Shown: positions 1,489 to 50,412 of the stretch, piece after piece | How the letters are laid out: each line of letters begins with the position of its first letter | Numbering within the stretch: position 1 is the stretch's first letter | NCBI GenBank assembly: GCA_030650425.1 | Contig: JAUSED010000010.1 | Coordinates: 10,104-74,103 of the forward strand | DNA length: 64,000 nt | Source: Candidatus Omnitrophota bacterium | GTDB lineage: Bacteria > Omnitrophota > Gorgyraeia > Gygaellales > Profunditerraquicolaceae | Reading direction: 5' to 3' | Made by a program: the position numbers and the translations under genes | The notes under the pieces: model-generated | Seen by the model: only the letters and a program-made list of their open reading frames with translations | The model's database searches: none | Told to the model about the DNA's origin: nothing

Positions 1489-4400
1489 TTATGGCGTTAC
1501 AAGCTGCGGCTCGCGGGGCAAGATTTGGATTTGGGCCAAGCTAAGCTGGAGTTCGTTTTCAGGCTTACCGGATTCAATTAAGACTAACATATCTTCTAAT
1601 TCGGGTTCGGTCTCGGTTACCCTTTCTTCTTCCATACGTAGAATATTGGCGATACAACCCAAAACCTTACCCATTTGCCTGCCTAAAGCCTGCCTTAGGC
1701 AACTGGAGGCGACATATTCTTTAAGCCGCTGGTTGGAAGGGATAATCCCTGCCTTAAGCATATTTTCTATCTCGGCCCACTCTGCATCAAGGTTAAGATT
1801 GCTTAATCTGTTTATCTCGATAGGGCTAAGTTTAAGCATCGCTGGGTTAATCGGGCTGCTAACAGCGGGTAAAGCGCGAAAGTCGATGCCGCCTTTTTTA
1901 TCTTTATTTAAGATTATAGGTGAATTTACCGAAGAGACAGATTGCAAATTTTTCTTCCGGGATTCTTTGAAATTGTTCAACATTTCATAAGTAATAATAT
2001 TCTCTGGATCAAATATAACTATGGAGACATGATTTCCTACTGCTTCATCTCCGCGCCCTTCTCCCCCCTCCATACCTATAACTCCATCGTAACCTAAAGA
2101 TAAAATAAATATTCTAAAATCAAACCCCTGAGTTATACCATCAAACCATCCATCTACGCCAGTTTCTTTAGAACCTCCTCCCTGGCGTAATAAGATAGGT
2201 TTTTTATTGTGCCTCCTATACCGAATGTAAGTAAAAATCCTGTCTCTTAAAGCTACCCGGGCCCAATCCAAAGATAAACTTTCCAAATACTTTAACCATG
2301 CATTTATCACCTCATCTGGAACGTTATTTCTACAATCTAATAATTTACTCCTTATCAATCTTGCCGCTACAACTTGAGGGTTGCCCGTTATTTTCTGTTG
2401 CGTTCTTCTCAATGCATATTTCTGAGCTTGTTCAGTATTATCAGTAAAATAAAACCCTAATCCCATCGTATACTCCATATCTTTTGGGCTTAAAATAAAC
2501 TGCTCAAATTCTCTATTGGTGCCATGAAAAATCGCTCCATCTTCTAAGGCCCCTGCATTATTTGAGTTAAGCCTTATTGGCATAGAGAAATCCGCTTCAG
2601 ACATCTGAGCATATTTGTTTAAAGCCGCTTCCTTTTCTCCCTGGGTTATTGGCCTATAGGTTTCGGTTAACTCGACAGTAACTTCCGCCGCCAAAGAGGC
2701 GGGTTCCTGCTGCGCCGGCGAGGCGGCGGTATCAGGTAAATTAGAAACGGTCCCCTTCTCTTCTGCTAACGGTGAGCCGGAGGATTTAGGTAAATTAGGC
2801 CCCTTCCCTTTTTCTGCAGGCGTCTTCTTTTGCAGCCTTTCCCACTCTGAGGTTGACATCGGGATGCGCATGATTCCCCCGGGAATTAGTCTTACAGGAA
2901 GATTCAGTCCGTTATACCCAATTATCCGTCTTGCCGGAGAGAATCTCTTACCATAACTTTTCCCTTTGTTTTCGCCATAGTACTGACGGACAAGACTCTT
3001 AATGCTGTCTCCCTTCTTTACTTGATGTTCTACCACTTTGGCCTCCGGGATAAATATCTTCCAGCCTGGAGGGCCGATTGGAGTTTGCCCGTTTTTCTCT
3101 TCTGACAAAAGCCCATATTCATTTGCATCGGCTATTTGTGAATACTGATTCCTGTCTCCATAATAATAGAATGCCAATAAACTAAGGCTCTGGCCTTTTA
3201 AGGTTATATGGAGAACAGACTGATAAAAGAAAGGTGTCTTAATTGCTAACTTCTTTTTTAGTTTTTCCCTCCAAAGTTCCTTCGCTTCCAATATCCTTTC
3301 TGCCTCTTTTTTTAATTCTTTGCTCCAAGGTTCAGATTCCAGAATCTTTAAGGCATTTACCATCTCTTTTAAGAAAGTTTCGTCATTGCTATATAATACT
3401 GATTCCTTTCCGCTATATTTTTTTATAAATTCTTCAAAAAATGGTTCGAGCTTTATTAACTCCGCGCGATCAAAATCAACAAACTCTGCGGGTGAGTACT
3501 CCAATTTATTTAACGCCCTAATGCGCGCCCAGATATATGCTTTTTTATCTTCCACCATCTCTCTATAACGCGAAGAGGAATTATCGCATTTACGCAATAG
3601 TTCGAGCGCGTTATCCGCAAGCCGCCAACCACCACCGACTTCCAGAATATCATCTACTGTAGTATCTAAAGAGATAAGTGAGTTTTCTTCCTTACTGGCT
3701 ATATCATACAATTGTTTATCCGCCTTTAATTTACGTAACTCTTTTAAAGCATCTATGCGTGTTTTATCCACAACCTTTTTATTCTCAACGATATCTTTTA
3801 GCCCTTCTTTATAACCGAGCATTTTAAAAACAGCGAGTTGAGCCTCCTGAAATACGCTTTTTGTTGGTTTTTCTGCTTTATTTACTTTCTCTGGTTCTGT
3901 TTTTGCTGTCTTTTTTTCTAGAAAGGGCTTACTTTCTTTTTGCACAAATTTGCCTATATATCTAATTTCCTCTTGCATAAATTCAGTAGCGTCAAACGGC
4001 CGCCACCCAAAATCCTTATCGTGGATTAAGATAAGGGCATGCCCGGGATATTTAAGGATTGCGTTTGTCCCGCCTAAAGAATATCCTTCGGCATAAAGCG
4101 CATCCACACCTAAGTATCTAAACATTAACCAGACAAAAGAAGAAGTAGTGTCACATTCACCCCTAAACTTCTCGCCCTCTGCTAATGTATCTGCCAACCA
4201 GTCAAAATATGTTCCACTGGCTAATTCACTATCAAAATATTTATTATAAATAAAATTGTTTCTGATTATATCGCGCACTGCCTCTATTTTCTCCTCAAAA
4301 GGAGCATCCTTAGCGCTATCCAGTTTATCCTTTATCTCCCTGAGATGAGGGTTAGTTTTTAAGATTTGGAATTCTTTCGCCAGCTGAGGCGTTTCCCGCA

Positions 4401-7400
4401 TATCGGAACTGATATAATTATGCCTATCTCTCTCGACTACTCTTAACAAATCATAGGTTACAAAGGTTGCTTTAGTTTTCTTTAAGGCCCTCAGGCTAAT
4501 ACCATCATCACCAAGTTCTAAGGCTCCTTCTTGCCCTTCTATATTTCTTATAACTCTTCCCAGCAGAGAAAAAACAGGTATACTTTCTCCTTTGTTAAGA
4601 GCTGGTATTTTTACTTTTAGTTTAATCACTTTAGAGTTGTCTGTTTCTACGCCAGCCGCTTTAATCTCTTTAACATAAAATTCCCCCTTATTTCCTAACA
4701 TATTGTATAACCCGGAAAATAAATGCTCTCTCTCCAAAAGATATTCCCTTCCGGAAACAATCTCGGCGATCTGGGGATTATTAAAGTTAGAATCTGATTC
4801 CATCTTTTTTATAATGCTTCCTTCTCCGCGGGGTTTGGTAAAATTATCGGCAAGAGGGATAACACCCCACTTCTGCCGGGACTTTTCTTCTTGAGGGATT
4901 CTAAAGGGTTTCGTCTCTGGCGCTCCAGCATACCTATAAATATTAGGCGCCGCTTGCTGCGGGGAATCTACTTTTGAAGAGTAATTGAGAAAAGAATAAA
5001 TCCCAATATAATAAAGTGCCGCAAATAGCAATAGAAAAGGAATAAGAGGCGCATACTCGAAAACCTTAGAAATAAACCCAGTATGCTCCTTATTTACTTT
5101 TTCCGGGCTGCCTATTTCTTGTCCAACCAATATTCTTTCGGCTGTTTCTTTCGAAGGTAGTTCTTTCTTTTCTTCTGCCTCCTTCTGCCATTGAATAATC
5201 AACGCTCTCACCCACTCCAGATCTTCATCAGCATTAATTTTCGATAGATCAAGCGGCTCCAGAGAAATTTTCAACTGCGATCTTCTTGTATGTTGATTGT
5301 ATATAGATGTGCCGTCAGGAAAACTCAGGCGCCCTTTATCAAAGCTCCAACCTTCTATTTTATTTATCTCTCCTACGGGCGAAGAAACAGGTTTTTCCTG
5401 CGCCGACGAGGCGGGGGTATCAGCTAAATTAGAAACGGCCGCATTTCCCGTCCCCTTTTGCTCATTTTTCTCTAACCTCTCTAACAGTTGTGTTATATAA
5501 CCTATAATTTCTTGCCAGTAACGAGTATTTTCTTCTGATTCTAATCGTTTCTTTTCCTTAGTTAAAAACGTTTTTAATTCTTCTCTTGAGGAAAGCGGGA
5601 ATAGCTTGGGATTAATTTTTAATAAAGTCCTCATAGCCTCACGTTTCGCATAAAAGTCACCATCTTTATATTCTCGTAATATTGTAGCCAAAGGGGGTTT
5701 CTCTTTTACATACAATATGTCTTGATGCTGATTGGAGTAATCAAAGTATTTATCAGCTAAGATATCCTTCATTACGCTTTTATCTTCGCCTATCTTGCTC
5801 AAAATACCTCCTGATTTTAATAATGAATCTAAATAATGTGAAAGGGCATTCCGGGATTCTAATCCTAGGGGAACGTACTGTAAAACATGATGAACAAAAA
5901 GTATATCTAAATTACCCACTAAATTAGGCGTTGTTCCTGCTGAAACATCAGCAAGATCAACATCATAGAATTCTAAATGCGAATTCATTCTATCAGAACG
6001 TTTGTAACCTTTTAGCTCTTCCACAACATAAACCTCTTTAAAATAATCAGCCTTTTCTTTATCCGTGAAACCTGCGTTGTCTATAACAATTTTAGGGAAG
6101 ATAATCTGGTTATTCTTTACTCTGTCGTATACTTTATTCGAATAACTCATCACGTCCACTTTAACAGTTATAGCTTTCTCAATATCTTCACCTGGCCTAA
6201 GTTGCTCTAAAAGTATTTTAGGGATCTGGCGGCTAAAATATGCAACGGCTGTAATCGGTTCTTGCCCAGAGGCTGCTCCGATAACTCCGATTGTGATTAC
6301 TTGCTGCTGCCCTGTTCTACGGAATTCACTTAGTTTATCCTTAACCAAATCTCCGAAGCCAACCCTATTAGATATGCTTCTAAGAACATCATCATATCTG
6401 AAGAATTGAGACCATTGGTCAAAGATGAGTTCTACCAATATTTTATTCTTTCTCAATGCTTCAATAAAAGGTTGTTCATTAAAAGAATGCCTGGAATCAC
6501 CTCTTATGCGTGCTAAGACTTCCCATCCACTATGACCTAAGCGCGGAAAGAATTTCCTTTTTTCTTCTTTTATCGCTTTATCGATTTCTTCTTCAAAATT
6601 TGCTAAAACTAAATCAATTCTTTCAAAATCTCCTTTTTCTGTGCCAAAGACGCCAAACAAAGACTGCAATAATTCTTTCTTAACATCATTCGTTATGATT
6701 GGTTTACCTAATCCGGGAATAGATATCATTGGAATGGGAGCTTTTACATTTAACGACTGCTGAAAAGTAAACCGAGATTTTTTCATCAAATCCTTAATTA
6801 CACTTCTTACAGCCATTCCTCTAAAAACACTTACTTCTGCTAATTTCTCATATATTCCTTTTAAATAATAGTTACTTCCTTCTTTTATTTCTATTTGCAC
6901 CGCTGCCTGTAACACTAAATACAGAATTCTATCTTCCGTTTCGTGACCAAAAGCTCTTGGATTGATTAAAATTTGGTTGAATTTCCTTTCTATTGCCACA
7001 ACCGGACCATCTTCTCCTAAATCATAGGCACTTATCCTCCAAGAGGCTAATTTAAATTGATTAGATGTTCCGATTTTATCTAACTCATATTTTGACATGA
7101 ATTTATTGAATTCGTCAACTTGCATAACGCCAATAGCGGATGAGCTAGCTTGAATACCAATAACTAGCTTCTGCGCAATAGGTGCAAAAGAAGAGGCGCC
7201 TGATGGAGAAGGCCTTTCGGCTGGCGAAGCTTGAGACGAAGGTAACCCTTCTGTTATAGTTATATTAGTATCTGATGGGTTCATACCGTTTCCAATAACA
7301 GCTAAGACAGGCATATTATTATCGGTTAAAGGTGAAATACCTTTATCGCCGACTGTTTCAAAAAGACTTGTTGAATCTGTTACTATCTTGATAGGACTGC

Positions 7401-8739
7401 CAGACGTTGGAGAAACGGAAGAGAAAGGTATACCGCCTAGAGATAAGCCTCCGCTAAAATAGCTCCTAATCACCTGGCCAGTAGGAGTATAGGCTGGCTG
7501 TTGGATGTTGTATTCGCCGTCTTTAAAGGATTTTTGGTAGGCTTGGAAGTAGGTGGTTTTGGACCAAGGTTGTTGGGAAATAAGGTTGGTGAGGTTGCGG
7601 GAGTTGATGAGCGCAGAAGCTGCATCAGGGACAGTCCCCTGCGGGGACAGTCCCTGATGCCGAGGGAAAGTGTCCCCTGCTGCTGTTGCGTGTCTAGCTT
7701 TAAACCATTGGGCTAAGATTAAAGAATAATAGACTTGCCTTAAAGGGGCATAGCGTTTGGAGGTGTTTATATCTTTGGTGAGTTTGGGGATGATTAGTTC
7801 TCTGATTAATTGAGAGGAATATTCGTTTAATTGCTTTAGGCGATCATCTTTAAACTGATACTGCGCGTAGGGGACACTTTCCTTTAAAGAGTTCCCTGAT
7901 AGCCCTGACGGAAAATGTCCCCTGCTTTTACTCGAAAGATAATCAGACTCAAGCATTACTTTAAGGGTAGCTTTGTAGATGTAGGCCGACGGTGGCACTT
8001 CGACTCGCTTGCGCTCGCTCAGTGCGCTGGCTTCGCCAGCGGTTTCGCGGATGATGATTTCGCCCGGGACGATCCAAGGACGAGTTAAGGTGGGTATGGT
8101 GATGTTTTCGTTACCTAAGAGTTCACCTGCTTTTTGATAAAGCTTATCCCAGTAAAGCTTACCTTCGGGGGTTTCGGGAGAAGTGAATTTGGCAGTGTCT
8201 TTTTTAAGTTGGAGATCGGCTTCTAGAAGAATCTTACCTACGTCAGTCTTGGCTAAATAATCATCAATAATATTATCCTCTGCATCAGGGCGTAGGTTGA
8301 CCCAGAAGGAGCTGTTGGGAAGGGTAAGGCCGATGAAGAAATAATTTAAGAGAACCTTGGTTTCGTCTTTAAGTTTAGTTTCATCCAAGGGGACACTTTC
8401 CTTTGGGCCAGAAGGGGACACTTTCCTTTGAGTGGCTTCGCCATAGCTCTGACGGAAAGTGTCCCCTTCTGCAGAAGTTGGAAAATGTCCCCTGCTGTTC
8501 TTTTGGGGAAGCTGATCGCCCTTGTCTAAAAGAAGCTTAAAGCTGTTGTTTTCTGGAAGATATTGCAGGGAACGCAGATGCAAGGGGCGGAATTTGTCTG
8601 GGATAAGGGAATTACGGAAGAGAGCGAGATGGCCGGAGATATCCAGCTCGCCGGCGACTTGAGCAAAACCAGACTGCTCAAAAATTAACAAAAAGCAGAC
8701 TAAAAAATAGATAAATTTAGGGAATTTGCGTTTTGGCAT
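1489..8739 (-). CDS. Giant secreted multidomain protein (2416 aa). Signal peptide, transglutaminase-like Cys-His-Asp core, LysM-like segment. N- and C-terminal modules shared with the 44259..49622 paralog.
   Basis: Uninterrupted ORF. N-terminal MPKRKFPKFIYFLVCFLLIF hydrophobic signal. GECDTTSSFVWLMFRYLGV...H...D resembles a transglutaminase-like cysteine protease core. N-terminal ~400 aa and C-terminal ~130 aa align with the second giant ORF. Confidence 0.7.
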   Translation of the reverse strand: MPKRKFPKFIYFLVCFLLIFEQSGFAQVAGELDISGHLALFRNSLIPDKFRPLHLRSLQYLPENNSFKLLLDKGDQLPQKNSRGHFPTSAEGDTFRQSYGEATQRKVSPSGPKESVPLDETKLKDETKVLLNYFFIGLTLPNSSFWVNLRPDAEDNIIDDYLAKTDVGKILLEADLQLKKDTAKFTSPETPEGKLYWDKLYQKAGELLGNENITIPTLTRPWIVPGEIIIRETAGEASALSERKRVEVPPSAYIYKATLKVMLESDYLSSKSRGHFPSGLSGNSLKESVPYAQYQFKDDRLKQLNEYSSQLIRELIIPKLTKDINTSKRYAPLRQVYYSLILAQWFKARHATAAGDTFPRHQGLSPQGTVPDAASALINSRNLTNLISQQPWSKTTYFQAYQKSFKDGEYNIQQPAYTPTGQVIRSYFSGGLSLGGIPFSSVSPTSGSPIKIVTDSTSLFETVGDKGISPLTDNNMPVLAVIGNGMNPSDTNITITEGLPSSQASPAERPSPSGASSFAPIAQKLVIGIQASSSAIGVMQVDEFNKFMSKYELDKIGTSNQFKLASWRISAYDLGEDGPVVAIERKFNQILINPRAFGHETEDRILYLVLQAAVQIEIKEGSNYYLKGIYEKLAEVSVFRGMAVRSVIKDLMKKSRFTFQQSLNVKAPIPMISIPGLGKPIITNDVKKELLQSLFGVFGTEKGDFERIDLVLANFEEEIDKAIKEEKRKFFPRLGHSGWEVLARIRGDSRHSFNEQPFIEALRKNKILVELIFDQWSQFFRYDDVLRSISNRVGFGDLVKDKLSEFRRTGQQQVITIGVIGAASGQEPITAVAYFSRQIPKILLEQLRPGEDIEKAITVKVDVMSYSNKVYDRVKNNQIIFPKIVIDNAGFTDKEKADYFKEVYVVEELKGYKRSDRMNSHLEFYDVDLADVSAGTTPNLVGNLDILFVHHVLQYVPLGLESRNALSHYLDSLLKSGGILSKIGEDKSVMKDILADKYFDYSNQHQDILYVKEKPPLATILREYKDGDFYAKREAMRTLLKINPKLFPLSSREELKTFLTKEKKRLESEENTRYWQEIIGYITQLLERLEKNEQKGTGNAAVSNLADTPASSAQEKPVSSPVGEINKIEGWSFDKGRLSFPDGTSIYNQHTRRSQLKISLEPLDLSKINADEDLEWVRALIIQWQKEAEEKKELPSKETAERILVGQEIGSPEKVNKEHTGFISKVFEYAPLIPFLLLFAALYYIGIYSFLNYSSKVDSPQQAAPNIYRYAGAPETKPFRIPQEEKSRQKWGVIPLADNFTKPRGEGSIIKKMESDSNFNNPQIAEIVSGREYLLEREHLFSGLYNMLGNKGEFYVKEIKAAGVETDNSKVIKLKVKIPALNKGESIPVFSLLGRVIRNIEGQEGALELGDDGISLRALKKTKATFVTYDLLRVVERDRHNYISSDMRETPQLAKEFQILKTNPHLREIKDKLDSAKDAPFEEKIEAVRDIIRNNFIYNKYFDSELASGTYFDWLADTLAEGEKFRGECDTTSSFVWLMFRYLGVDALYAEGYSLGGTNAILKYPGHALILIHDKDFGWRPFDATEFMQEEIRYIGKFVQKESKPFLEKKTAKTEPEKVNKAEKPTKSVFQEAQLAVFKMLGYKEGLKDIVENKKVVDKTRIDALKELRKLKADKQLYDIASKEENSLISLDTTVDDILEVGGGWRLADNALELLRKCDNSSSRYREMVEDKKAYIWARIRALNKLEYSPAEFVDFDRAELIKLEPFFEEFIKKYSGKESVLYSNDETFLKEMVNALKILESEPWSKELKKEAERILEAKELWREKLKKKLAIKTPFFYQSVLHITLKGQSLSLLAFYYYGDRNQYSQIADANEYGLLSEEKNGQTPIGPPGWKIFIPEAKVVEHQVKKGDSIKSLVRQYYGENKGKSYGKRFSPARRIIGYNGLNLPVRLIPGGIMRIPMSTSEWERLQKKTPAEKGKGPNLPKSSGSPLAEEKGTVSNLPDTAASPAQQEPASLAAEVTVELTETYRPITQGEKEAALNKYAQMSEADFSMPIRLNSNNAGALEDGAIFHGTNREFEQFILSPKDMEYTMGLGFYFTDNTEQAQKYALRRTQQKITGNPQVVAARLIRSKLLDCRNNVPDEVINAWLKYLESLSLDWARVALRDRIFTYIRYRRHNKKPILLRQGGGSKETGVDGWFDGITQGFDFRIFILSLGYDGVIGMEGGEGRGDEAVGNHVSIVIFDPENIITYEMLNNFKESRKKNLQSVSSVNSPIILNKDKKGGIDFRALPAVSSPINPAMLKLSPIEINRLSNLNLDAEWAEIENMLKAGIIPSNQRLKEYVASSCLRQALGRQMGKVLGCIANILRMEEERVTETEPELEDMLVLIESGKPENELQLSLAQIQILPREPQLVTP
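7627..7680. repeat. Palindromic repeat, GGGGACAGTCCCC variant, inside giant ORF 1 in-frame
   Basis: cagggacagtcccctgcggggacagtccctgatgccgagggaaagtgtcccctgc. Translated in-frame as GDTFPRHQGLSPQGTVPD. Confidence 0.7.
7870..7925. repeat. Family A palindromic element (GGGGACACTTTCC...GGAAAATGTCCCC) inside giant ORF 1 in-frame
   Basis: ggggacactttcctttaaagagttccctgatagccctgacggaaaatgtcccctgc. Encodes SRGHFPSGLSGNSLKESVPY in the giant ORF. Confidence 0.75.
8389..8495. repeat. Compound family A element (two left arms plus long right arm) inside giant ORF 1 in-frame
   Basis: The same ~107-bp compound element recurs at 12304-12436 and 50308-50412 intergenically. Here it is translated as ...NSRGHFPTSAEGDTFRQSYGEATQRKVSPSGPKESVP.... 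Confidence 0.75.
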
Positions 8740-8755
8740 TTTTAGTTACGCTCCA

Positions 8756-8811
8756 GGGGACACTTTCCTTGAAAGAGTTCCCTGATAGCCCTGATGGAAA
8801 ATGTCCCCTGC
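8756..8811. repeat. Family A palindromic element just upstream of the giant ORF 1 start
   Basis: ggggacactttccttgaaagagttccctgatagccctgatggaaaatgtcccctgc. Confidence 0.75.
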
Positions 8812-8922
8812 GGGGTTTTTTTGCTGCCAGTCGTATGTTAATTCAAGTATACAATATAGGTAAGAGGATTCAAGGGGAAAGCGGGGATTTAGGGAAAGCG
8901 CTTTCTTTCGTAGCGAACTCGA

Positions 8923-8980
8923 AAAATGGGGACAGTCCCCAAAAGGCGGGGACAGTCCCCATTTTTTGTCCCCATTTTTT
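8923..8980. repeat. Tandem mini-hairpins AAAATGGGGACAGTCCCCATTTT x2
   Basis: gaaaaatggggacagtccccaaaaggcggggacagtccccattttttgtccccatttttt. The same unit occurs at 49343-49375 and 49716-49740. Confidence 0.65.
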
Positions 8981-9023
8981 CAGTTGTAGCCAAAGGGGAT
9001 TTTTGTTAGAATACTTTATTCCT

Positions 9024-10154
9024 ATGTTAAATTTCTCGATAGCTAAAAGCCTGAATGAAATTCCGCGCCAAGAGTGGGATAATCTTTTTGGTGAAGAGCT
9101 GATTGAAAGTTATGGCTACCTGAAAACGTTAGAAGCTGGCGGAGTTAAGGAATTTGCTTTCGGATATCTAGTTGGGAAAAGAAATAGCCACATCGTTCTC
9201 ATCCTCCCCTTTTTCATTATGGACTTCTCCTTCGCGATGCTAGCCCCTGAATTCCTACACAAACTAGCCAATATCTTTAACCGTTGGTTAAGCATGAAAA
9301 TAATTTTCTTAGGCTCTCCTACTACCGAAGGATTCTCAATGGGCCTATCACCCAATGAAGATGCCGAAGCAATTTTAGATCAAGCTATAGAAGAATTACG
9401 GGCATTTTCTAGAAAAGAAAAGATCGCGGCTATGGCCTTTTATAATCTCTCGTCAAAATACCTGAAATTAGCTGAATACCTCAAGCGAAAAAAATTCCTG
9501 AAAATGGAGACATTGCCTACTACTACGATTGATATAAAAGCGGAGTCACTTGAAGAATACATCCAAGGGTTGGGGAAAAATACCCGGAAAGACTTAAAGA
9601 AAAAATTACGCCGCTCTCAAGAACTCGTCCAGCTTAAAACCGAAACACGCGTGGAGATATCCGATATCATTGACGATGTTTACAGGTTATATATGAATAA
9701 CGTGAATGACGCGGATGTGCATTTTGAAACCCTGACCAAAGAATTCTTCCTGAATATCTGCCGGAATATGCCCGGCGTGGCTAAATATTTTATTACTTAC
9801 GATCAACATAAAATCGTAGCCTTTAACTTATGTCTAATCAAAGATGGAGTTTTTATTGATAAGTTTATCGGATTCGATTACGCGGTGGCCCACCAGTATC
9901 ATCTTTACTACACTACCTTCTGCCAGAATATGGACTGGTGCATTAAAAACGAGATGCGAGTTTATCAGCCGGGATTTAGCGACTATCATCCTAAAATACG
10001 GCTGGGCGCGCAGCTTATACCGCTGGATATTTATGCCAAGGCCTTTAATCCACTGCTCAATGCATTGATCAGGCTAATTAAACCATTAATTGAACCGAAA
10101 AACTTAGATCCTGTACCTAAGGATTTTCACCCTACAACCATAAACTTTTCATAA
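9024..10154 (+). CDS. FemAB-like / GNAT-fold acyltransferase-family protein (PF04339-like)
   Basis: Only plus-strand gene in the window. The ORF track start at 8733 runs through the repeat elements, so the likely real start is ATG 9024 (MLNFSIAKSLNEIPRQEWDNLF...). Family assignment is from general similarity only. Confidence 0.4.
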   Translation: MLNFSIAKSLNEIPRQEWDNLFGEELIESYGYLKTLEAGGVKEFAFGYLVGKRNSHIVLILPFFIMDFSFAMLAPEFLHKLANIFNRWLSMKIIFLGSPTTEGFSMGLSPNEDAEAILDQAIEELRAFSRKEKIAAMAFYNLSSKYLKLAEYLKRKKFLKMETLPTTTIDIKAESLEEYIQGLGKNTRKDLKKKLRRSQELVQLKTETRVEISDIIDDVYRLYMNNVNDADVHFETLTKEFFLNICRNMPGVAKYFITYDQHKIVAFNLCLIKDGVFIDKFIGFDYAVAHQYHLYYTTFCQNMDWCIKNEMRVYQPGFSDYHPKIRLGAQLIPLDIYAKAFNPLLNALIRLIKPLIEPKNLDPVPKDFHPTTINFS

Positions 10155-12303: not shown

Positions 12304-12436
12304 AGGGGACACTTTCCTTTGGGCCAGAAGGGGACACTTTCCTTTGGGCCAGAAGGGGACACTTTCCATTGAGTGGCTTCGCCATAGCCCTGACGGAAAG
12401 TGTCCCCCTCTGCGGAAGTTGGAAAATGTCCCCTGC
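12304..12436. repeat. Compound family A element (three left arms), intergenic
   Basis: ggggacactttcctttgggccagaa x2 ... ggaaagtgtcccc...ggaaaatgtcccctgc. It generates spurious ORFs 12274..12594 and 12344..12550. Confidence 0.8.
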
Positions 12437-12472
12437 TGCTGGGGTTGCCATAAAATATATTTTCCTAGGGAC

Positions 12473-13054: not shown

Positions 13055-13095
13055 CAAGAATCCCAAGCTTTTTTCGGACTTGGGATTATTTGTTC
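13055..13095 (-). terminator. Hairpin AATCCCAAG-tccgaaaaaa-CTTGGGATT plus CTTGTTTT (minus sense), downstream of the DUF2950 gene
   Basis: Member of the recurrent CCCAAGC...GCTTGGG hairpin family. Confidence 0.45.
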
Positions 13096-13099
13096 CGCA

Positions 13100-25430: not shown

Positions 25431-26483
25431 TCAATCTTTACTTATATACAGCTTCTGCGTAGGATAGGCAAACTCTATGCCCCGTTTTTCAAACTCTTCC
25501 TTAATCGCGAAATTAATCTCCTGCTGGACATCCATATATTTGTTGTAATCGGGAGTTAAAACAAAATACACGACCTCAAAGATGAGGCTAAAATCCCCAT
25601 AACTAAAAAAGTGTGCGCGGTCAAAAGCCGTGTCTTTGGTATTCTTAACGACACGCTCGATGATCTTGGGAATTTCCTTTAATTGGCTAAGAGAAGTCTG
25701 ATAAGTAACGCCTATACGAAATAAAATACGCCTTTTCTCCATAAGCCTATAATTACGAACCCGGGAGTCTGTAAGGTCGGTGTTAGAGAATATTACCTGT
25801 TCGCCGCCCAAGCTGCGTATGCGCGTGGTTTTTATCCCTATATACTCAACGGTACCCATGAAATCACCGATGATTATAAAATCCCCTATTTTGAAGGGAT
25901 GGTCAAAGACTATAGAAAAATAGCTGAAGAAATCTTTCAGGAGCGCCTGCGCGGCTATTGCTACTGCAATACCGCCGATTCCTAATCCGGCAATTAACGT
26001 AGAGACTTTATAACCAAGGTTATCTAATAGAATTATAACCGCCAAGGCCCAAATCAAAAATTTAACGGCCCATAACATACCATCAAGGCTGCGCACCACC
26101 GTGGGATCCTGCTGCTTTTTGGTAAGATATGTATTAATCCCCCAACCGGCAAGCATAACCACTATGCGCGCGGCAAAAAAAGTGATAATAATCATCTCAA
26201 AAGTGTTGATCAAAGCGCCGGCTGCGGAAGGTAATTTTAATGTTTTGGCGCTCACATAAAAACAACTGATGTATAATGCCGGCAGGCCGATCTTTGACAG
26301 AATTGATACTAAAAAATTATCGAATCTTGTAGTAGTTCTTTCCGCTATTTTTTTAAGACGCCTTATAAAGAAGAGGATAACCACTTTAACAAACAACAGG
26401 GTTAAGAATAACGTTACTAAAGCGATAATATAATCCAAAATACGGTTGCCAAAAAATACCTGCTCTAAAATTTTTAGATCCAT
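25431..26483 (-). CDS. Mechanosensitive ion channel, MscS family
   Basis: Three N-terminal TM helices and an MscS beta domain (GTVEYIGIKTTRIRSLGGEQVIFSNTDL). Confidence 0.85.
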   Translation of the reverse strand: MDLKILEQVFFGNRILDYIIALVTLFLTLLFVKVVILFFIRRLKKIAERTTTRFDNFLVSILSKIGLPALYISCFYVSAKTLKLPSAAGALINTFEMIIITFFAARIVVMLAGWGINTYLTKKQQDPTVVRSLDGMLWAVKFLIWALAVIILLDNLGYKVSTLIAGLGIGGIAVAIAAQALLKDFFSYFSIVFDHPFKIGDFIIIGDFMGTVEYIGIKTTRIRSLGGEQVIFSNTDLTDSRVRNYRLMEKRRILFRIGVTYQTSLSQLKEIPKIIERVVKNTKDTAFDRAHFFSYGDFSLIFEVVYFVLTPDYNKYMDVQQEINFAIKEEFEKRGIEFAYPTQKLYISKD

Positions 26484-27909: not shown

Positions 27910-28869
27910 TTATTTATCCAGCGACTTCAGATATTTATAATAATCGCTGTCGGTAGTCAGGATTACCGTTGAATTTGCGTCAATAGTGCCCCTATACGTT
28001 TCCAGCGTCTTAAGAAAAGAATAAAATTCGGGATTCTGCTCATAAGAGGTAGCGTAAATATTAATTGCTTCGGCGTCGGCTTTACCGACAATAGACTGCG
28101 CTTGCTTGTAAGCCTCTGAAGTTATTAACTTAAGTTCTTTACCGATCTGGCCCTCTATTTCGGCCGCTTTCCCAAACCCCTCCGAGCGGTATTTTTCAGC
28201 GGCGCGTTTTCTCTCCGCAATCATCCTGTCGTAAACTTTATTTCGGACCTCTTCCACATAATTTATGCGTTTGATACGCACATCCAGAATCTCAATCCCG
28301 TATTGGGGAGCAAGCACTTTTGCCTTTTCCAGTATAGAGCGAGTCAACTTCTGCCTTCCCATTTCTATACGTTCAAGCGCCTCTTCGCTGACTATGGCAT
28401 CTTCCCCTAAATCCTTACTCTCAAGTATGCGGTTAGAATCCCTTACCGCCTCAACCAGAAGATTACCGGTAACAGCATCCCTGGTAGCTGAATTAATAAT
28501 ATCGTTTAGCCTGCTGCTTGCGCTTGTTTCATTACCCACAGACTGTAGGAATTTCAAGGCATCCACTATTTTCCAGCGCGCCGTGGTATCTACCCAGATA
28601 TATTTCTTGTCTTTTGTGGGTATTTGGTTCGGATCGCCGTCCCATTCCAAGAGCCTCTTCTCAAAATAATGCGCCTCTTGTATCAAGGGAATTTTAAAAT
28701 GCAAGCCAGCGGAAGTTATGGGTTCTCCGACTGGTTTACCGAACTGGGTAATCACTACTTGTTTTGTTTCATCAACTATAAATAACGCCCCGCTGGCAAA
28801 GGCAAGCAAAACAATTACAGCCGGGAAAATAATTAACCCCAAAATAGTCCCTAATCTGCCCTCTTTCAT
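27910..28869 (-). CDS. hflC: Protease modulator HflC (SPFH/band 7)
   Basis: N-terminal TM, then FIVDETKQVVITQFGKPVGE. Overlaps the hflK stop. Confidence 0.85.
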   Translation of the reverse strand: MKEGRLGTILGLIIFPAVIVLLAFASGALFIVDETKQVVITQFGKPVGEPITSAGLHFKIPLIQEAHYFEKRLLEWDGDPNQIPTKDKKYIWVDTTARWKIVDALKFLQSVGNETSASSRLNDIINSATRDAVTGNLLVEAVRDSNRILESKDLGEDAIVSEEALERIEMGRQKLTRSILEKAKVLAPQYGIEILDVRIKRINYVEEVRNKVYDRMIAERKRAAEKYRSEGFGKAAEIEGQIGKELKLITSEAYKQAQSIVGKADAEAINIYATSYEQNPEFYSFLKTLETYRGTIDANSTVILTTDSDYYKYLKSLDK

Positions 28870-29861
28870 TGCTGCGGCCCTCCTTTCTTGCCTATATCCA
28901 ATAACGGCAATATGGAAGATTGCCTTGGGTCAATAATATATTTTTCTTTCACCTTGGGCAAGACCTCGGCAAGGGCTTCAAGATAGAGCCTCTTACGGGT
29001 AATCTCCGGGGCTTTCTTATATTCTCCCAGGGTCACTAAAAACCTTTCCGACTCGCCCTTGGCCCTGTTTATCTTATCCAGGGAATATCCCTCTGCTTCG
29101 CGGATAGTCCGCTCCGCTTCTCCTTTGGCCTTTGGTATGGCCTTATTATATGCCTCCCAGGCCTGATTGATCATCTTCTCTTTTTCCTGTTTTGCCTCAT
29201 TAACTTCGTTAAAAGCCGGCTTTACCTTATCCGGAGGATTTACATCCAGCAGTTTCACCGTAATGACCTGCACGCCGGTCTGATAATCATCTAGAATCCT
29301 CTGCATTTCAACTTGAGCTAAGTGGTCTACTTCTTCCCTTTTAATAGTCAACACCTCATCCACGGTGTAATCTCCCACCAGCCGGCGCATGACTATTTCA
29401 GAGACATCCCTTATAACATTAACCGGGTTACGCACGACAAAAAGGAGCTTAATGGGGTCTTTTATTTTAAATTGCACAATCCAGCGAACGTCGAGTATGT
29501 TTAAATCTCCGGTAAGCATTAACGACTGTTCTAAATTCGAGCCGTAAGAACGCGTACTCACTAAACCCGAGCTCCCTCCCCCAAACTCTTCCTTGAATAT
29601 TTTTTCTACTTTTATCGGCGTTACCTTATCAATGCCAAAGGGAATCTTAACGTGCAAGCCGGGTGAACTTAATTCTGTATATTTACCGAACCTCTGCATG
29701 ACCCCTACTTCATCCGGGCCTATTGAATAGATTACCCCTCTTAGACCTATAATAATAAGCAGGCCAAATATTATCCAGGGGATATACTTGCCATAATCGG
29801 ATAATTTCTTTTTGCCTACATCGATTATATCGTCCGGGCTAGGAACATTTTGCCAGTCCAT
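28866..29861 (-). CDS. hflK: Protease modulator HflK (SPFH/band 7)
   Basis: GPDEVGVMQRFGKYTE...VKLLDVNPPDKVKPAFNEVNEAKQEKEKMINQA. Confidence 0.85.
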   Translation of the reverse strand: MDWQNVPSPDDIIDVGKKKLSDYGKYIPWIIFGLLIIIGLRGVIYSIGPDEVGVMQRFGKYTELSSPGLHVKIPFGIDKVTPIKVEKIFKEEFGGGSSGLVSTRSYGSNLEQSLMLTGDLNILDVRWIVQFKIKDPIKLLFVVRNPVNVIRDVSEIVMRRLVGDYTVDEVLTIKREEVDHLAQVEMQRILDDYQTGVQVITVKLLDVNPPDKVKPAFNEVNEAKQEKEKMINQAWEAYNKAIPKAKGEAERTIREAEGYSLDKINRAKGESERFLVTLGEYKKAPEITRKRLYLEALAEVLPKVKEKYIIDPRQSSILPLLDIGKKGGPQQ

Positions 29862-32904: not shown

Positions 32905-32959
32905 AGTTTACACAACCTATTATACTACAACTGATTCCTAAGGGAATTTGTTTCGCAAT

Positions 32960-36194: not shown

Positions 36195-36362
36195 CCCCTA
36201 TTTTCTAGAGAATTGCCTTTAGATTCTAATGTCTAAACTCATAATAACGTTCCTTTGTTATTGATTATATTCTACCTCGGTTTTTGAGTTTTACAATCGA
36301 AAAGACGGGATTGCTTCGGCTGCTGCGCTGCCTCGCAATGACGGGGGAGCTAAAAAAACAAG

Positions 36363-36436
36363 GGGACACTTTCCTTTAAAAAGTAACAAATAGCTCTGAC
36401 GGAAAATGTCCCCTTCAATTACTGTGTCCCCTGCTG
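36363..36436. repeat. Family A element
   Basis: ggggacactttcctttaaaaagtaacaaatagctctgacggaaaatgtcccc...gtgtcccctgc. Confidence 0.8.
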
Positions 36437-36854: not shown

Positions 36855-36909
36855 GGGGACACTTTCCTTTTGAAAGTTCCACATAGCTCTGACGGAAAAT
36901 GTCCCCTAC
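36855..36909. repeat. Family A element
   Basis: ggggacactttccttttgaaagttccacatagctctgacggaaaatgtcccctac. Confidence 0.8.
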
Positions 36910-37053: not shown

Positions 37054-37059
37054 AAGAAG

Positions 37060-38955: not shown

Positions 38956-38984
38956 AGGACCTCATTAATGTATAGGGGACACTT

Positions 38985-39030
38985 TCCTTTTAAGAGTCCC
39001 CGGATAGCTTTGACGGAAAATGTCCCCTGC
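38985..39030. repeat. Family A element
   Basis: ggggacactttccttttaagagtccccggatagctttgacggaaaatgtcccctgc. Confidence 0.8.
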
Positions 39031-39149: not shown

Positions 39150-39166
39150 TATTTTAGAAGAATTAC

Positions 39167-39619: not shown

Positions 39620-39767
39620 CTTGCTCCTTGTGTACAAACACAACACCGGCGTAATTCAAATAAACGCCGGGTGTCTTTTATCGTGGTTAAGTTGCTATAC
39701 TTTAACTATCTACTATACACCTTTTGGGGGATAAAGCAAAGGGTTCTTGAGAGACAAGGGGACACTT

Positions 39768-39812
39768 TCCTTTAAGCCGTATCTGATAGCTTTGACGGAA
39801 AATGTCCCCTGC
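39768..39812. repeat. Family A element
   Basis: ggggacactttcctttaagccgtatctgatagctttgacggaaaatgtcccctgc. Confidence 0.8.
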
Positions 39813-40533: not shown

Positions 40534-40648
40534 GGGGACACTTTCCTTTTCCCGCCAGGCTATGTAATAGCGGGCGGGATCCCGCCTGATAAAGAATAGC
40601 TTGGCGGGAAAAGAGTTCCCGATAGCTTTGACGAAAAATGTCCCCTGC
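40534..40648. repeat. Family A element with a ~55-bp insertion inside
   Basis: ggggacactttccttttcccgccaggc...gcgggatcccgcctg...gatagctttgacgaaaaatgtcccctgc. Confidence 0.7.
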
Positions 40649-41703: not shown

Positions 41704-41805
41704 GGGGACACTTTCCTTTAAGCCGTATCTGATAGCTTTGACGGAAAATGTCCCCTGCGAGTAGGAGGTTAAGAGTATTCCAGCCTGACGGAAAATGTCC
41801 CCTGC
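41704..41805. repeat. Family A element with a duplicated right arm
   Basis: ggggacactttcctttaagccgtatctgatagctttgacggaaaatgtcccctgc...cctgacggaaaatgtcccctgc. Confidence 0.8.
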
Positions 41806-44258: not shown

Positions 44259-47200
44259 TTATCGTAGTCCAGTAAATACCGCTTTTAGTTCCTGATTAGG
44301 CATCCCTGATTCAAGCACAACCAGGATGTCTTTAAGCGTTACTTCAGTTGGATAGCAGCGCTCTTCTTCTAGTCTTAGGATATCAGCAATACAGGAGACG
44401 ACTTTCTGCGTATCTGGATTTCCTTGAAGGCAGGAACTGGCGACATATTCCTTGATCCTTTCTGCTGAAGGAGTAATCCCCGCATCCACTAACTTCTGCA
44501 TCTCTTGCAGTTCTTGATTTAGGTTTAAAGACTTGAGCTGGCTTAAAGATATAACTGAAGAGGCGCTTAATCTTAAGTTACTCATCGCTTGGGTAACGAT
44601 GGGAAGCGCGCGGAAGTCAATACCACCCTTACCATCATCTACACCATTATTAACAACCGAATTCGCCTGTTTGTGCGTATCGGTTACTATTGGCGAAGAC
44701 AATGATTGTGCGTTTTGTTTCCGGTTATTTTGATGTTCCGCGATCTCCAGGAGTTTATCGAGGTATCTTTCTACCAGTACATACCTAAACCAATAAGGAG
44801 GCTTTCCGTCAATTTCATCAAAGTCCCATTGAACTAAACCAAGGAGCCTTTGTTCAAACGTCCTTTCATCGGAATAAAGTACAAAGAAGTCTCGATACGG
44901 AAACTGGTTAGAAATAAATTCTTCGTCTTCCACTTTCTCTTGATATGCGCTAATAAATAAGGCAACAGGAACAGAAGGTTTTCCGCGTTTAAGACCTATA
45001 TCACCCAGAAAAACGCTCCCAAATTCTTCTAATACCGCTTTCGCTTGTTTTACATTTTTGGCGACTCCGCGGTTTCGTAACATAGAAGGGCTCACTATTA
45101 TGCAATTACCATAAAACTCATCCTCTAACATTATTGGAAGATCGGCTGATGGAGCAATATGAATCCCAATTTCTACTTTGAGCAGTTGAGATAGTCTTTG
45201 GATCTTTTTAACGAGCCGATTTATAAGCTGTTTATGAGGTTCGGATTCAAAAAGATTCATGCCTAATTCTAATTTCGCGAGCTGCGGCTGTCTCTCTGGC
45301 GTAAGACGATCAAATTTTACGCCAAGTTTTATTAAATACTGCTTGGCTATTTCGCGGCGCTGCTTTTTTGATATCTTCTCATTAATAGGCGAAGAGGTAT
45401 TTTGAGGCACTTCTATTTTTACTTCCACCGCCGAAGAGACGGGTTGCTTCTGCGCCGGCGAGGCGGCGGGCTCTTTAAAGTAGACAATATCACCATCTTT
45501 AAAATTTATCTGATTTGTAAGGATATCCTCTAGAGACAAAGTCTGTTTATTCACAACCATCGTAAGCTTATTCTCTAGTATGCTCGTGATGTCAACCATC
45601 GTTTCGTTGTGATCAAGCGTTTCTTCAGTGAGCAGCATCAAAAGAAGGTCAAAAGGCCCGTTTGCCCGTAAGTCTAGGGCTTTGCCCTTATACCCCACAG
45701 TTATGGTAGAAAATATTGAGGCCTTCTGCGCGCTACCATTCTTTATCGTCTCTGCCTCCTGTAAAACAAGCTCTTTTTGTAACGAATATATCTTAGCGCG
45801 ATTTCCTGTTGTAAATACATGCTTTAATGTACTATAGTGGCCGCTGATGCCATATAGAAAAATGTCTTCAAGCTCTAAGAGGATTGCCTTCTCAGCGTTA
45901 GCGTTTAAGGCTGTATACATAAGATGAGTTAATATGAAATCAAGCGTTTCATCATTGATCTTTTTTAACGCAAAGGCTTTTTTTAAGGCTTCTTTCCCTT
46001 CAGGCGTTGGTTTAAAAAGCAAGCCTTGATAATAGACAAGGCCTCTTTTTACCAGGCGCCTGCTGTCACGAATACTTACTACCGGCTTCTCAAGCTCAAA
46101 GTAGGGGCCAGCTCCGGCTATATCTTTTGCTGTAAGAATATACTTAAGTTCTTCTCCTGATGTCGAAGTAACCCTTGATACTGATGGCTTAAGGGCGCTT
46201 AAGAACGCGTTTAAGCTATCCATATTGACATTGGGATAACGCGCGTTTAACCAAGCCTTGCTATTTTGAGTTGTTTCCTGGAGATTATTCATATAGCGTC
46301 TTCCGGATATAGACATACTAATTACTTCACCATAAGTAGTAATATAGAACACCTTGTCAAAAGAAGGAGAAATCCCCAAGAGGCGCACCCCTGCTTTTTC
46401 GGCTTTCGCTTCAATAAAGTCAAGTGTAGGGGTATAGAAGATAATCGGCTCTTTTGTTTTCTGGCCAATAAGTTTTCCTTCACGCCAAAAACTAAGAGCA
46501 TCTATGCTACCTTCCTTTTGTTCATATTCAAACTTAACCTCTGAAGGAATATCTAACTCCATGGCTAATTGGTCATTTTTGAATTTAGCCTGCAGGCCGT
46601 TAGTATACAGGCCGTATGAGGTAAAGTATATACCGCCTATATTCTCCCCGGCAAAGCCTCTTTGCCGCGCGTACAAAGACATCATCCGGCTAAAGGCCGG
46701 CTCAAAGATGATCCCGTTGTTGCGTAATTTTAATAACGGCGAGTGCAATGATTCAAGGTTATGCTTAAGAAAAAGATTGGTTAAATATAGAACAGCCATT
46801 TTTTGCACATTGCCTTTTATCGCTTCGGTAATTGCTACTATTACATCAGGGACATTCGCGAAGGCGATAACGGTACTTGGCTGAATGAGGCCAGGCGTGT
46901 TTCTAGCAATTATTTCTATTGTATGATCTTTTCCGGACAGATTCCCGCCTAATCTTTCGGTGTCAGGAATATCCCCTACTTTTATTAGTTCTTTGTTTTG
47001 TGTGGGCTTATTGCTAACAAATTTGCCCCACCATCTTTTAATAGAAGGTATTATATTAATCGCCGAAGAGGCGGTTTCCTTCTGCGCCGGTGAGGCGGAG
47101 GATTTTGTTGCGGTGACTAACGAAGAAACTTCTGGCGAAAATGCCACTGCTACTTTTGAATAATCACTATTCCTGGTTTTAAAAATAGTTGTCTTCCGAT

Positions 47201-49715: not shown

Positions 49716-49740
49716 GAAAAATGGGGACAGTCCCCATTTT
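49716..49740. repeat. AAAATGGGGACAGTCCCCATTTT mini-hairpin upstream of giant ORF 2
   Basis: Same unit as at 8923-8980 upstream of giant ORF 1. Confidence 0.65.
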
Positions 49741-50307: not shown

Positions 50308-50412
50308 GGGGACACTTTCCTTTGGGCCAGAAGGGGACACTTTCCTTTGAGTGGCTTCGCCATAGCTCTGACGGAAAGTGTCCCCTTCTGCAGAAGTTGG
50401 AAAATGTCCCCT
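50308..50412. repeat. Compound family A element, intergenic
   Basis: Near-identical to 8389-8495. Confidence 0.8.

Follow-up and report, generated by a model that had tools for sequence, protein, structure and literature searches.

Two large ORFs and a palindromic repeat family

The analysed window is a stretch of 64,000 nt from a Candidatus Omnitrophota bacterium. It contains two large paralogous ORFs, ORF1 and ORF2 (Table 1), sharing 67% identity over the N-terminal 430 aa and 45% over the C-terminal 150 aa. In ORF1, a signal-peptide-like N-terminus and the N-terminal domain conserved in Omnitrophota (aa ~1-430) are accompanied by transglutaminase-core and DUF3990/ART-like regions and by a C-terminal domain that is also conserved. 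Six sites of a palindromic repeat lie inside these two intact ORFs, all within the common ~430-aa N-terminal domain, and ~14 of 20 repeat sites fall within the non-coding ~18% of the window, mainly in spacers between co-directional genes, the predominantly extragenic distribution typical of REP/REPIN sequences.

Table 1. Large ORFs, genic repeat sites and intergenic repeat copies in the window
Feature	Position	Strand	Remarks
Large ORF1	1489..8739	-	2416 aa; reading frame open 7.2 kb
ORF1 loop site 1, compound (nested) element	8389..8492	-	outer arms around complete inner element
ORF1 loop site 2, canonical 53-nt unit	7870..7922	-	translated SRGHFPSGLSGNSLKESVP
ORF1 loop site 3, composite	7627..7677	-	one long arm and inverted doublet AGGGACWGTCCCC-TGC-GGGGACWGTCCCT
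ORF1-only 13-aa extra AGEASALSERKRV	7990..8040	-	tip of beta-hairpin
Large ORF2	44259..49622	-	1787 aa; paralogue of ORF1; reading frame open 5.4 kb
ORF2 loop site 1	49343..49375	-	two GGGGACWGTCCCC palindromes with A5 and T5 flanking runs
ORF2 loop site 2, canonical unit	48861..48913	-	translated SRGHFPSGLSENAQKESVP
ORF2 loop site 3, canonical unit, different frame	48616..48668	-	translated GDIFRQGDNGTLKRKVSP
Intergenic unit	8756..8808	-	17 nt upstream of ORF1 ATG, directly 5' of GGAG ribosome-binding site
Intergenic doublet of GGGGACAGTCCCC, A/T-run flanks	8929..8975	.	divergent spacer between ORF1 and FemAB-like gene
Intergenic compound element	12305..12433	-	three left and two right arms, upstream of recG
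Intergenic unit	36362..36413	-	additional half-arm at 36425
Intergenic unit	36855..36906	-	
Intergenic unit	38975..39027	-	20 nt upstream of ABC-F ATG
Intergenic unit	39758..39809	-	9 nt downstream of stop codon
Intergenic unit	40534..40645	-	second, different palindrome (CCCGCC...GGCGGG) nested in loop
Intergenic unit (41704-41755) and solo right arm (41790-41802)	41704..41802	-	Dus-PGI spacer
Single GGGGACAGTCCCC palindrome, A4/T4 flanks	49718..49740	.	between PPIase gene and ORF2
Intergenic compound element	50308..50411	-	6 nt past stop codon, 21 nt before PPIase ATG

The arm GGGGACACTTTCC, searched on both strands with up to 2 mismatches, gave 37 matches against 0.92 expected, a number reached in 0 of 100 shuffles. 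The window holds 13 full 57-nt units and, in addition, three compound ones of ~112 nt. A preliminary description of this DNA had proposed modelling the hairpins, and the stems fold with z-scores of -3.5 to -7.5. Units are 53-57 nt long, with arms of 13-14 bp forming terminal inverted repeats as in MITEs. In the long form, conserved 13-bp arms (GGGGACAYTTTCC and GGAAARTGTCCCC) enclose a 20-45-nt genome-specific loop; its short relative is the palindrome GGGGACWGTCCCC, which frequently occurs as an inverted doublet, and the variant GGGGACAGTCCCC is present 7 times in the window. Inverted doublets of the form AGGGACWGTCCCC-(3 to 24 nt)-GGGGACWGTCCCT, an arrangement shared with REP/REPIN sequences, were found at 7627-7660 and also at the loci L021, L022 and L023 of other genomes. 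Rfam contained no family for the hairpins at gathering and E-value thresholds, the window matching only rRNA and nhaA-I, and the segment 7550-9050 gave only sub-threshold matches to miRNA-precursor hairpin models.

The stem is preceded by a tag of the form G[T/C/A]AG, with conservation across 83 arms limited to the A at -2 (78%) and the G at -1. GYAG precedes 23 of these arms and exact GTAG 9, so that the GTAG tag that marks the REP/REPIN superfamily is weakly supported here. A clear ribosome-binding site lies between hairpin and ATG in three cases in the window. A fixed distance upstream of start codons was also considered: in 27 of 58 copies the first in-frame start follows after 8-26 nt, but an open frame would give ~35% by chance, and this spacing was not relied on. 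A terminator-like pattern was matched by 49718-49740 and by ORF2 site 1 (49342-49374, sense strand), the long 53-nt units not being flagged and the window total equalling the shuffle expectation.

Repeats inside ORF1 and ORF2 are read in frame

The preliminary description had placed the repeats at these coordinates in both large ORFs and had stated that none interrupts the reading frame. All of its coordinates hold, both ORFs are read through with homologous sequence on both sides of every insert, and the quoted insert peptides are correct. It listed insert lengths and said that all of them preserve the frame; the frame is indeed kept, but 107, one of those lengths, is not a multiple of 3. ORF1 site 1 is translated as SRGHFPTSAE-GDTFRQSYGEATQRKVSP-SGPKESVP and site 3 as GDTFPRHQGLSPQGTVP, and ORF2 site 1 is translated as KGTVPVFWGLSPF. 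The net gain over modal loop lengths is about +39, +20 and +17 aa in ORF1 and about +17, +20 and +15 aa in ORF2. As RNA, ORF1 site 1 has a hairpin energy of -66 kcal/mol, and ORF2 site 1 forms a 20-bp hairpin of -35.8 kcal/mol. Site 2 has the same position in ORF1 and ORF2, in surroundings (300 nt) that are 88% identical between the paralogues, and its arms are identical in both while its loop has diverged. At ORF2 site 3 one arm position is substituted, and on the sense strand the pair is retained as G·U. The DNA of the ORF1-only extra contains a small palindrome, GCTGGCTTCGCCAGC, with an 11-mer in common with the compound-element loop.

Several genic copies are nearly identical to intergenic ones. 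In ORF1, the compound copy at 8388-8499 matches the intergenic copy at 50307-50418, 42 kb away, with 98% identity and that at 12329-12440 with 96%, and the ORF1 copy at 7869-7925 shares 96% identity with the intergenic copy at 8755-8811.

Comparison with insert-free orthologues and structure prediction had both been put forward earlier as checks. Most of 120 homologues have short loops, with modal lengths of 16, 5 and 12 aa at sites 1, 2 and 3, and the closest sister clade (P0001-P0007, P0011, P0016) is without insert at any of the three sites, while GGGGAC-type inserts are scattered over at least 8 lineages. In the AlphaFold model (mean pLDDT 80, pTM 0.77), every insert is a low-confidence coil between confident helices or strands, a position outside the folded core like that of RPE segments. 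In ORF1, pLDDT is <50 at aa 82-112 (site 1) and aa 277-285 (site 2); for the site 3 insert (aa ~352-375), the 10-residue block means are 56 and 54 (residues 351-370), not <50. Short homologue loops, an insert-free sister clade, near-identical intergenic copies, intact ORFs and the coil location thus support the reading, already proposed in the preliminary description, that the segments are in-frame insertions of a palindromic repeat and not ancestral protein sequence.

Element copies are not open in every reading frame. The inserts of homologues read GTVP in 15 cases, GLSP in 17 and GDCP in 0, the cysteine-containing frame never being used. All 6 genic sites are confined to ~2.6 kb of ~52 kb of coding sequence, and among ~20 copies in other genomes none lies in a credible ORF. 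Such an extreme enrichment in one protein family indicates that random insertion plus tolerance alone may be an incomplete account. Many apparently intragenic matches in contigs of 64-72% G+C were discarded, their overlapping multi-frame ORFs being unreliable. Insert-derived predicted peptides include SRGHFPSGLSGNSLK and GLSPQGTVPDAASALINSR.

The same loops are occupied by different repeats in other genomes

In many homologues, the same three loops hold repeats belonging to that genome itself. At L021, the spacers and each of the homologue's three loops contain the same palindrome pairs, the copies in loops 1 and 3 being closer to each other than to intergenic copies. The same doublet is found upstream of the gene and in loop 1 at L023, and L020 and L024 carry other palindromes in their loops, with GTAG read in the sequence ahead of them. 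Between genomes, the 13-bp arms are the same and the loops different, although the search patterns imposed part of the arms' identity and asymmetry. Two orthologous spacers, in a genome with 76-84% nucleotide identity, likewise have identical arms and unrelated loops. Of the spacers compared in the syntenic relative (L004, L111, L117), two are also occupied and a third contains a different hairpin; the orthologue of the 38975..39027 site in L117 is occupied with identical arms and an unrelated loop, and the orthologous site of 40534..40645 in L004 is also occupied. The ORF2 locus shows no synteny with the related genome, where a 481-aa ORF at the position of ORF2 proved unrelated to it.

The repeats also follow a strand rule. 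In 23 of 23 metagenome cases where both flanking ORFs run the same way, the gene strand is the one on which the full stem forms with a G·U pair. This holds equally for all co-directional cases at 19 genome loci and throughout the window, where every copy has the same orientation and 56 of 59 ORFs lie on the minus strand; this co-orientation with genes is confounded with replication direction. On the opposite strand, the stem has a C·A mismatch instead of the G·U pair. Since the copies are co-oriented with transcription, the mRNA strand makes an uninterrupted stem containing a G·U pair, and in three of three arm polymorphisms in the window pairing is kept only on the sense strand.

Three observations are new: the same loops hold a genome's own repeats in many homologues, identical arms enclose differing loops, and the strand rule applies. 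Co-orientation, together with invariant arms as against free loops, suggests that the intergenic copies are active at the RNA or single-strand level. Our guess is that they would act as mRNA hairpins, serving as stabiliser or processing punctuation.

Mobilisation and insertion boundaries

No transposase, RAYT or integrase was detected by Pfam among 46 ORFs of the window, nor in the ORFs between paired copies at L038, L051 and L091. A parent IS with the same termini was found neither in the window nor at the compared loci, and a viral-contig scan for the repeats gave no match. With respect to target-site duplication, the flanks (..A|element|T..) extend the palindrome, and a direct repeat such as TA was seen in a minority of copies only. 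No clean empty site that would define the insertion boundaries and any target-site duplication was recovered among the insert-free homologues or in the syntenic relative; the nearest insert-free homologues (L026, L027) are ~70-75% identical, with loops not alignable at the nucleotide level.

Relation to known palindromic repeats

RPEs (Ogata et al. 2000) are ~100-150 bp long, CGTC-tagged and restricted to Rickettsia, where they occupy unrelated housekeeping genes and sites (PMC10969869, PMC3733652). Like RPEs, the repeats described here are palindromic, occur both in spacers and in frame in functional genes, and are translated as extra segments compatible with the fold. They differ in having a ~53 bp unit or a doublet of a 13-bp palindrome, another sequence, the tag G[TCA]AG and Candidatus Omnitrophota as host, and in that all genic copies seen are confined to three homologous loops within a single protein family.

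Several species have intragenic GTAG REP dimers encoding 20-30 aa, with the highest number in O. terrae, a PVC bacterium (PMC3733652); GTAG REPs are mobilised by RAYT, and occupancy of the same site by different REPs has been described in Xanthomonas recB (PMC3733652, Di Nocera et al. 2013). The present repeats resemble REPs as short stem-loops that are mostly extragenic between unidirectional genes and plausibly transcribed, in their inverted dimers 1-100 bp apart, in intragenic dimers encoding 20-30 aa, and in the occupancy of the same site by different repeats. In contrast to REPs, more than 90% of members here carry G[T/C/A]AG and not GTAG, a long variable loop separates the 13-bp arms of the long form, which are not themselves palindromic, no RAYT was seen among the ORFs scanned, and the strict G·U/C·A co-orientation with transcription is outside the REP definition.

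In-frame genic repeats further include ERIC, Coxiella QMITE1 and Anabaena MITEb/e (PMC10969869, PMC5896051). The earlier statement that in-frame cases outside Rickettsia are rarely described was thus overstated, because intragenic REPs, RPEs, ERIC and QMITE, as well as the Anabaena MITEs, were already known. With bacterial MITEs, the repeats share terminal inverted repeats, a non-coding and dispersed character and occasional in-frame fusions with host ORFs; however, their size is at the extreme low end, and their arms are conserved across species whereas the core is not. The MITE label used in the preliminary description is not established, as no target-site duplication was found and no parent IS in the window or at the compared loci. 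Correia/NEMIS elements are similar in being co-transcribed with neighbours into long RNA hairpins that possibly affect mRNA fate (PMC3733652). Correia elements differ in being 100-155 bp long, in duplicating a TA target and in occurring in both orientations.

Proposed origin and alternatives

We consider it likely that the repeats are a native Omnitrophota family of short, non-autonomous palindromic elements, REP/REPIN- or MITE-like. Six copies are fixed in frame in three disordered loops of the conserved, secreted N-terminal domain of the two paralogues. In such a family, copies would proliferate, become nested and undergo turnover at fixed sites. The site 2 copy is probably older than the paralogue duplication, and sites 1 and 3 were probably remodelled later. 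According to the structural model, the fold would tolerate the Gly/Pro/Ser-rich translated peptides of 15-39 aa, and survivors would be limited to in-frame, stop-free and cysteine-free readings. The loops may recur as hosts because they are permissive, with resident copies attracting nesting or replacement.

An alternative that we regard as unlikely gives the intragenic hairpins a function as attenuators or pause sites coupled to translation, with the loops as maintained landing sites: strong stems (-26 to -66 kcal/mol), located 250-1100 nt inside very long genes, would tune the expression or co-translational export of costly secreted proteins. The terminator-like hairpin of ORF2 site 1, the perfect pairing of the site 2 arms in both paralogues despite loop divergence, the filling of the same loops by different repeat families in many lineages and the strict sense orientation of genic copies are all in line with this idea. 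The same facts are, however, explained by tolerance plus concerted evolution; ~40% of 85 homologues, the nearest sister clade included, have no insert at any site, and some genic copies are visibly decayed, such as GGGACTGTCTCC in L023. It is similarly doubtful that the 13-bp arms are a signal read, on the transcript or single-stranded DNA, by a protein conserved in Omnitrophota and related PVC bacteria, the loops being maintained landing pads whose hairpins, more than tolerated junk, would control translation-coupled transcription, pausing or export of very large secreted proteins.

Much less probable is a role of the repeats as recombination substrates for paralogue exchange or cargo shuffling, in which their N-terminal presence would be a diversification mechanism. 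One N-terminal module is indeed combined with very different cargos (PGM/PMM, HEAT, PGK, transglutaminase/ART), and the non-syntenic ORF2 locus and the mutual closeness of the L021 loop copies would fit such exchange. Yet the repeats lie inside the conserved module and not at the module-cargo junction, the junctions bear a different repeated linker found only in the ORFs (ASPAQKE), and no rearrangement breakpoints were seen at repeats.

That the segments are ancestral low-complexity loop sequence, with the intergenic copies derived from it or alike by chance, is largely refuted and most improbable: loop length does vary across the whole family, and insert-free homologues at site 3 read GKGDTY (GGTGACACTTAT), similar to the arm, but genic copies are 96-98% identical to unlinked intergenic copies, the inserts are missing from the sister clade and have a scattered distribution across the tree, spacers of many other genomes contain the same arms, and the 37 arm matches compare with 0.9 expected. 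Equally remote is the explanation that the large ORFs are untranslated pseudogenes or artefacts of collapsed or mis-joined repeats, a classic source of mis-assembly in metagenome assemblies such as these, given frames that remain open over 7.2 and 5.4 kb and have a conserved domain at either end, the same loop insertions in independent NCBI, JGI and ENA assemblies, and signs of selection, on the inserts only, in the unused cysteine frame and the identical site 2 arms with a diverged loop.

As a native palindromic family fixed in frame, the repeats would add Omnitrophota, a phylum that is uncultured and noted for very large proteins, to the bacteria with selfish DNA inside protein-coding genes; in the text of two papers on Omnitrophota giant proteins, no occurrence of "palindrom" or "hairpin" was found. 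Different repeat families have entered the three loops of one conserved domain independently in many genomes, and this recurrence provides a natural experiment on the loops, frames and peptides that a fold accepts. There is also a practical risk, as the spurious ORFs and false N-terminal extensions created by the repeats will mislead gene callers and domain-boundary prediction in Omnitrophota MAGs. Such extensions had been noticed earlier in this window and, where tested, were supported, the Pfam match starting at residue 106 in the ORF at 8733..10154 and at residue 46 in the Dus ORF.

Anatomy of the repeat family

The arm GGGGACACTTTCC, searched with at most two mismatches, matched the window 37 times against 0.92 expected, a number reached by no shuffle. 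Each element consists of GGGGACACTTTCC, about 27 nt and GGAAA(A/G)TGTCCCC, and the copies were grouped into 13 units, each 57 nt long, plus three compound ones (~112 nt) with 96-98% identity; a related 13-nt palindrome, GGGGACAGTCCCC, was found seven times, singly or in doublets. The units are all oriented alike, and the minus strand holds 56 of the 59 ORFs. Predicted stems are 13-14 bp long, with folding energies of -24 to -27 kcal/mol in single units and -66 kcal/mol in the compound form, and z-scores of -3.5 to -7.5. All repeat coordinates of the preliminary description held on re-check.

In one unit, an unrelated second palindrome (CCCGCCAGGCTAT...ATAGCTTGGCGGG, inner GGCGGGATCCCGCC) is nested in the loop, indicating insertion of one repeat family inside another. 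A CTGCGGAAACTGTTTCTTGCGA-type sequence, present in three copies next to GGGGAC units, may be a further small repeat or a degenerate arm.

Two large ORFs host the genic copies

ORF1 and ORF2 are paralogues; they share 67% identity over the first ~430 aa and 45% over the last ~150 aa, and their middles are unrelated. Transglutaminase-core and DUF3990/ART-like domains were matched in ORF1, and the N- and C-terminal modules of both had no match in Pfam or NCBIfam. A search with the N-terminal module recovered 334 proteins, of which the named ones are almost all hypothetical proteins of Candidatus Omnitrophica/Omnitrophota (52-70% identity), and these homologues are fused to many different cargos. 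The C-terminal module of ~150 aa (KGGIDFRALP...IPS..R.KEYV.SSCL...LRLEEER) occurs in ORF1 and ORF2 and also in short homologues (P0003-P0007, P0016); the two modules together bracket a variable cargo.

A repeat of ~41 nt with partly complementary ends (CCGCCGCC...GGCGGCGG), encoding the linker (A)ASPAQKE(T/P)(V/A)SS, has five matches versus 0.1 expected, is confined to the two large ORFs and apparently lies at cargo-segment boundaries; it could serve as a conserved linker or cleavage motif or, alternatively, as a junction repeat at which modules are shuffled. In the PGI-PPIase interval (window 43290-49740; 3700-5450 of L111), a syntenic relative has an unrelated 481-aa ORF in place of ORF2 and its two small neighbours, indicating that the large-protein locus varies between related genomes.

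Repeats are inserted in frame at three loops

All six genic repeat sites, which fall within ~2.6 kb of the ~52 kb of coding sequence in the window, occupy three positions of the N-terminal module, the same three in ORF1 and ORF2. None of the copies in the other genomes examined (~20) lies inside a credible ORF. At sites 1-3, the modal segment lengths among 120 homologues are 16, 5 and 12 aa, versus 55, 25 and 29 aa in ORF1. In a neighbour-joining tree of the alignment with loops masked, ORF1 groups with ORF2 as its sister, the clade closest to the pair (P0001-P0007, P0011, P0016) is insert-free at every site, and GGGGAC-type inserts are scattered across at least eight lineages. Moreover, the compound copy in ORF1 and an intergenic copy 42 kb distant share 98% identity, and the site 2 copy of ORF1 is 96% identical to a unit in the ORF1 5' leader. 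Together, these data support the proposal of the preliminary description that the genic segments are palindromes inserted in frame, rather than ancestral protein sequence. Site 2 is occupied in both paralogues with 88% identical flanks, suggesting that this insertion probably predates the duplication; the repeat variants at sites 1 and 3 differ between ORF1 and ORF2, suggesting later remodelling there.

An AlphaFold2 model of ORF1 residues 1-440 (85 input sequences) had a mean pLDDT of 80.3 and a pTM of 0.77. Its low-pLDDT segments, below 50 at residues 82-104, 107-112 and 277-285 and averaging ~55 at 351-370, are the three inserts, each modelled as coil between confident elements (E66-72/H120-139, H264-271/H299-326 and H328-350/H394-407).

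The same loops carry repeats across the protein family. In locus L021 (GCA_018824265.1), pairs of AGGGACTGTCCCC and GGGGACTGTCCCT separated by ~24 nt occur in two spacers and all three homologue loops. In L023 the gene is preceded by the doublet AGGGACTGTCCCC-GAA-GGGGACTGTCCCT, which is also present in loop 1, and L022 has this doublet in loop 2. Loop 1 of L020 contains the long element and its loop 2 another perfect palindrome, GTAGTGCGGGCTTAAGCCCGCACTAC, starting with GTAG; L024 has GTAGGGACAGGTCGCGACCTGTCC-form palindromes in loops 1 and 3, and loop 2 of L025 contains one half of a CAGC-rich intergenic palindrome. About 40% of 85 homologues examined are insert-free, and the others have at least one lengthened loop. 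That several repeat families have repeatedly colonised three homologous loops is new. In the homologues, the short palindrome encodes GTVP (15 cases) or GLSP (17) and never GDCP, and a single unit has only about two of its three sense frames open; a filter on the encoded peptide is thus evident.

Distribution, co-orientation and turnover

Exact arms were found at 19 loci, belonging to about nine Omnitrophota MAGs and a single Planctomycetales MAG, with genome-specific loops, and in 114 metagenome loci; the arm sequences were preset by the search patterns. Among 80 metagenome loci analysed, 40 copies are asymmetric, with a U·G pair on one of the strands and a C·A mismatch on its complement. For all 23 asymmetric metagenome copies that lie between two co-directional ORFs (23 of 23), the gene strand is the one with the G·U pair; this is also true of the genome loci and every window copy, and all three arm polymorphisms in the window keep pairing solely on the sense strand. 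Gene orientation and replication direction are correlated, so this co-orientation may come from a DNA-level mechanism that is strand-specific, like that of IS200/IS605 or RAYT.

The relative L004/L111/L117 shows synteny with window 37-43.5 kb (76-84% nucleotide identity). Its units at two shared spacers have identical arms and unrelated loops; the spacer sites persist and their content turns over, mirroring the protein loops.

The 13-nt arms, perfectly paired and extended (...CCATTTCC / GGAAATGG...), were also present in metagenome contigs with a G+C content of 64-72% (L032, L033, L040, L044, L045, L060, L064, L069, L073, L076, L078, L081, L090, L093, L099, L100, L102, L103, L107); the few lower-G+C contigs measured alongside (L035, L068, L071, L089, L098) are far from this, at 43-52%. 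The arm-bearing locus L003 is labelled Planctomycetales. The distribution of the arm motif seems to extend beyond Omnitrophota.

Relation to known palindromic repeats

No transposase was found in the 46 window ORFs scanned or between paired copies in other loci, Rfam contained no family for the hairpins, and viral contigs gave no match. The tetranucleotide before the stem is G[T/C/A]AG, with exact GTAG in 9 of 83 arms, and the A...T flanks extend the palindrome without forming a direct repeat. The element thus behaves like REP/REPIN or MITE repeats but lacks a defining feature of either family.

Rickettsia RPEs, ERIC, QMITE1 and Anabaena MITEs are established cases of in-frame palindromic repeats (PMC10969869), as are GTAG and CGTC REPs in several species (PMC3733652); their rarity outside Rickettsia had thus been overstated. 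By text search, two preprints on Omnitrophota giant proteins do not mention palindromes, nor does the 2026 one mention hairpins or MITEs. What is new is the host phylum, an element family whose arms are invariant and whose loops vary freely, and its strict co-orientation with transcription.

Other features of the window

Coordinates of features in the window
Feature	Position	Strand
ORF1 (2416 aa)	1489..8739	minus
ORF2 (1787 aa)	44259..49622	minus
C-terminal module, ORF1; ORF2	1489-2100; 44259-44798	minus
~41-nt linker repeat	2689-2729, 5377-5417, 45429-45469, 47061-47101, 47751-47791	minus
Unit with nested palindrome; palindrome	40534-40645; 40547-40632	
CTGCGGAAACTGTTTCTTGCGA-type copies	37016-37057, 39110-39151, 41655-41696	
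23S rRNA 3' part, region	62199-63986	minus
LAGLIDADG_1 and LAGLIDADG_2 ORFs	62560..63099, 63447..63986	
5S rRNA	61849-61965	
nhaA-I riboswitch; SPFH/Band 7 gene pair	29924-29970; 27910..29861	minus (riboswitch)
nhaA-I riboswitch; MscS-type gene	26524-26579; 25431..26483	minus (riboswitch)
48-nt motif	13098-13145, 32956-33003, 34274-34321	
AAAATCCCAAGC-loop-GCTTGGGATTTT hairpins	13055-13091, 32484-32520, 55499-55535, 55684-55714, 56482-56512, 57040-57070, 57196-57232	

The 23S rRNA match (model positions 2049-2912 over 1234 nt, 233 bits) is ~370 nt too long, and two 179-aa ORFs there encode LAGLIDADG endonucleases, suggesting that homing-endonuclease introns or insertions are probably present in the gene. 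Two nhaA-I riboswitch matches (47 bits versus a gathering score of 37) lie upstream of an SPFH/Band 7 gene pair and an MscS-type mechanosensitive channel gene, respectively. Three minus-strand ORFs each have at the 5' end a copy of a 48-nt motif (CAATCCTCTCAACTACAAGTAGTTAGATACAAC...; 77-83% identity), which may act as a leader or promoter. Hairpins of a second family, AAAATCCCAAGC-loop-GCTTGGGATTTT, look terminator-like; the Dus-PGI spacer holds one such hairpin in the relative L004 and a GGGGAC element in the window.
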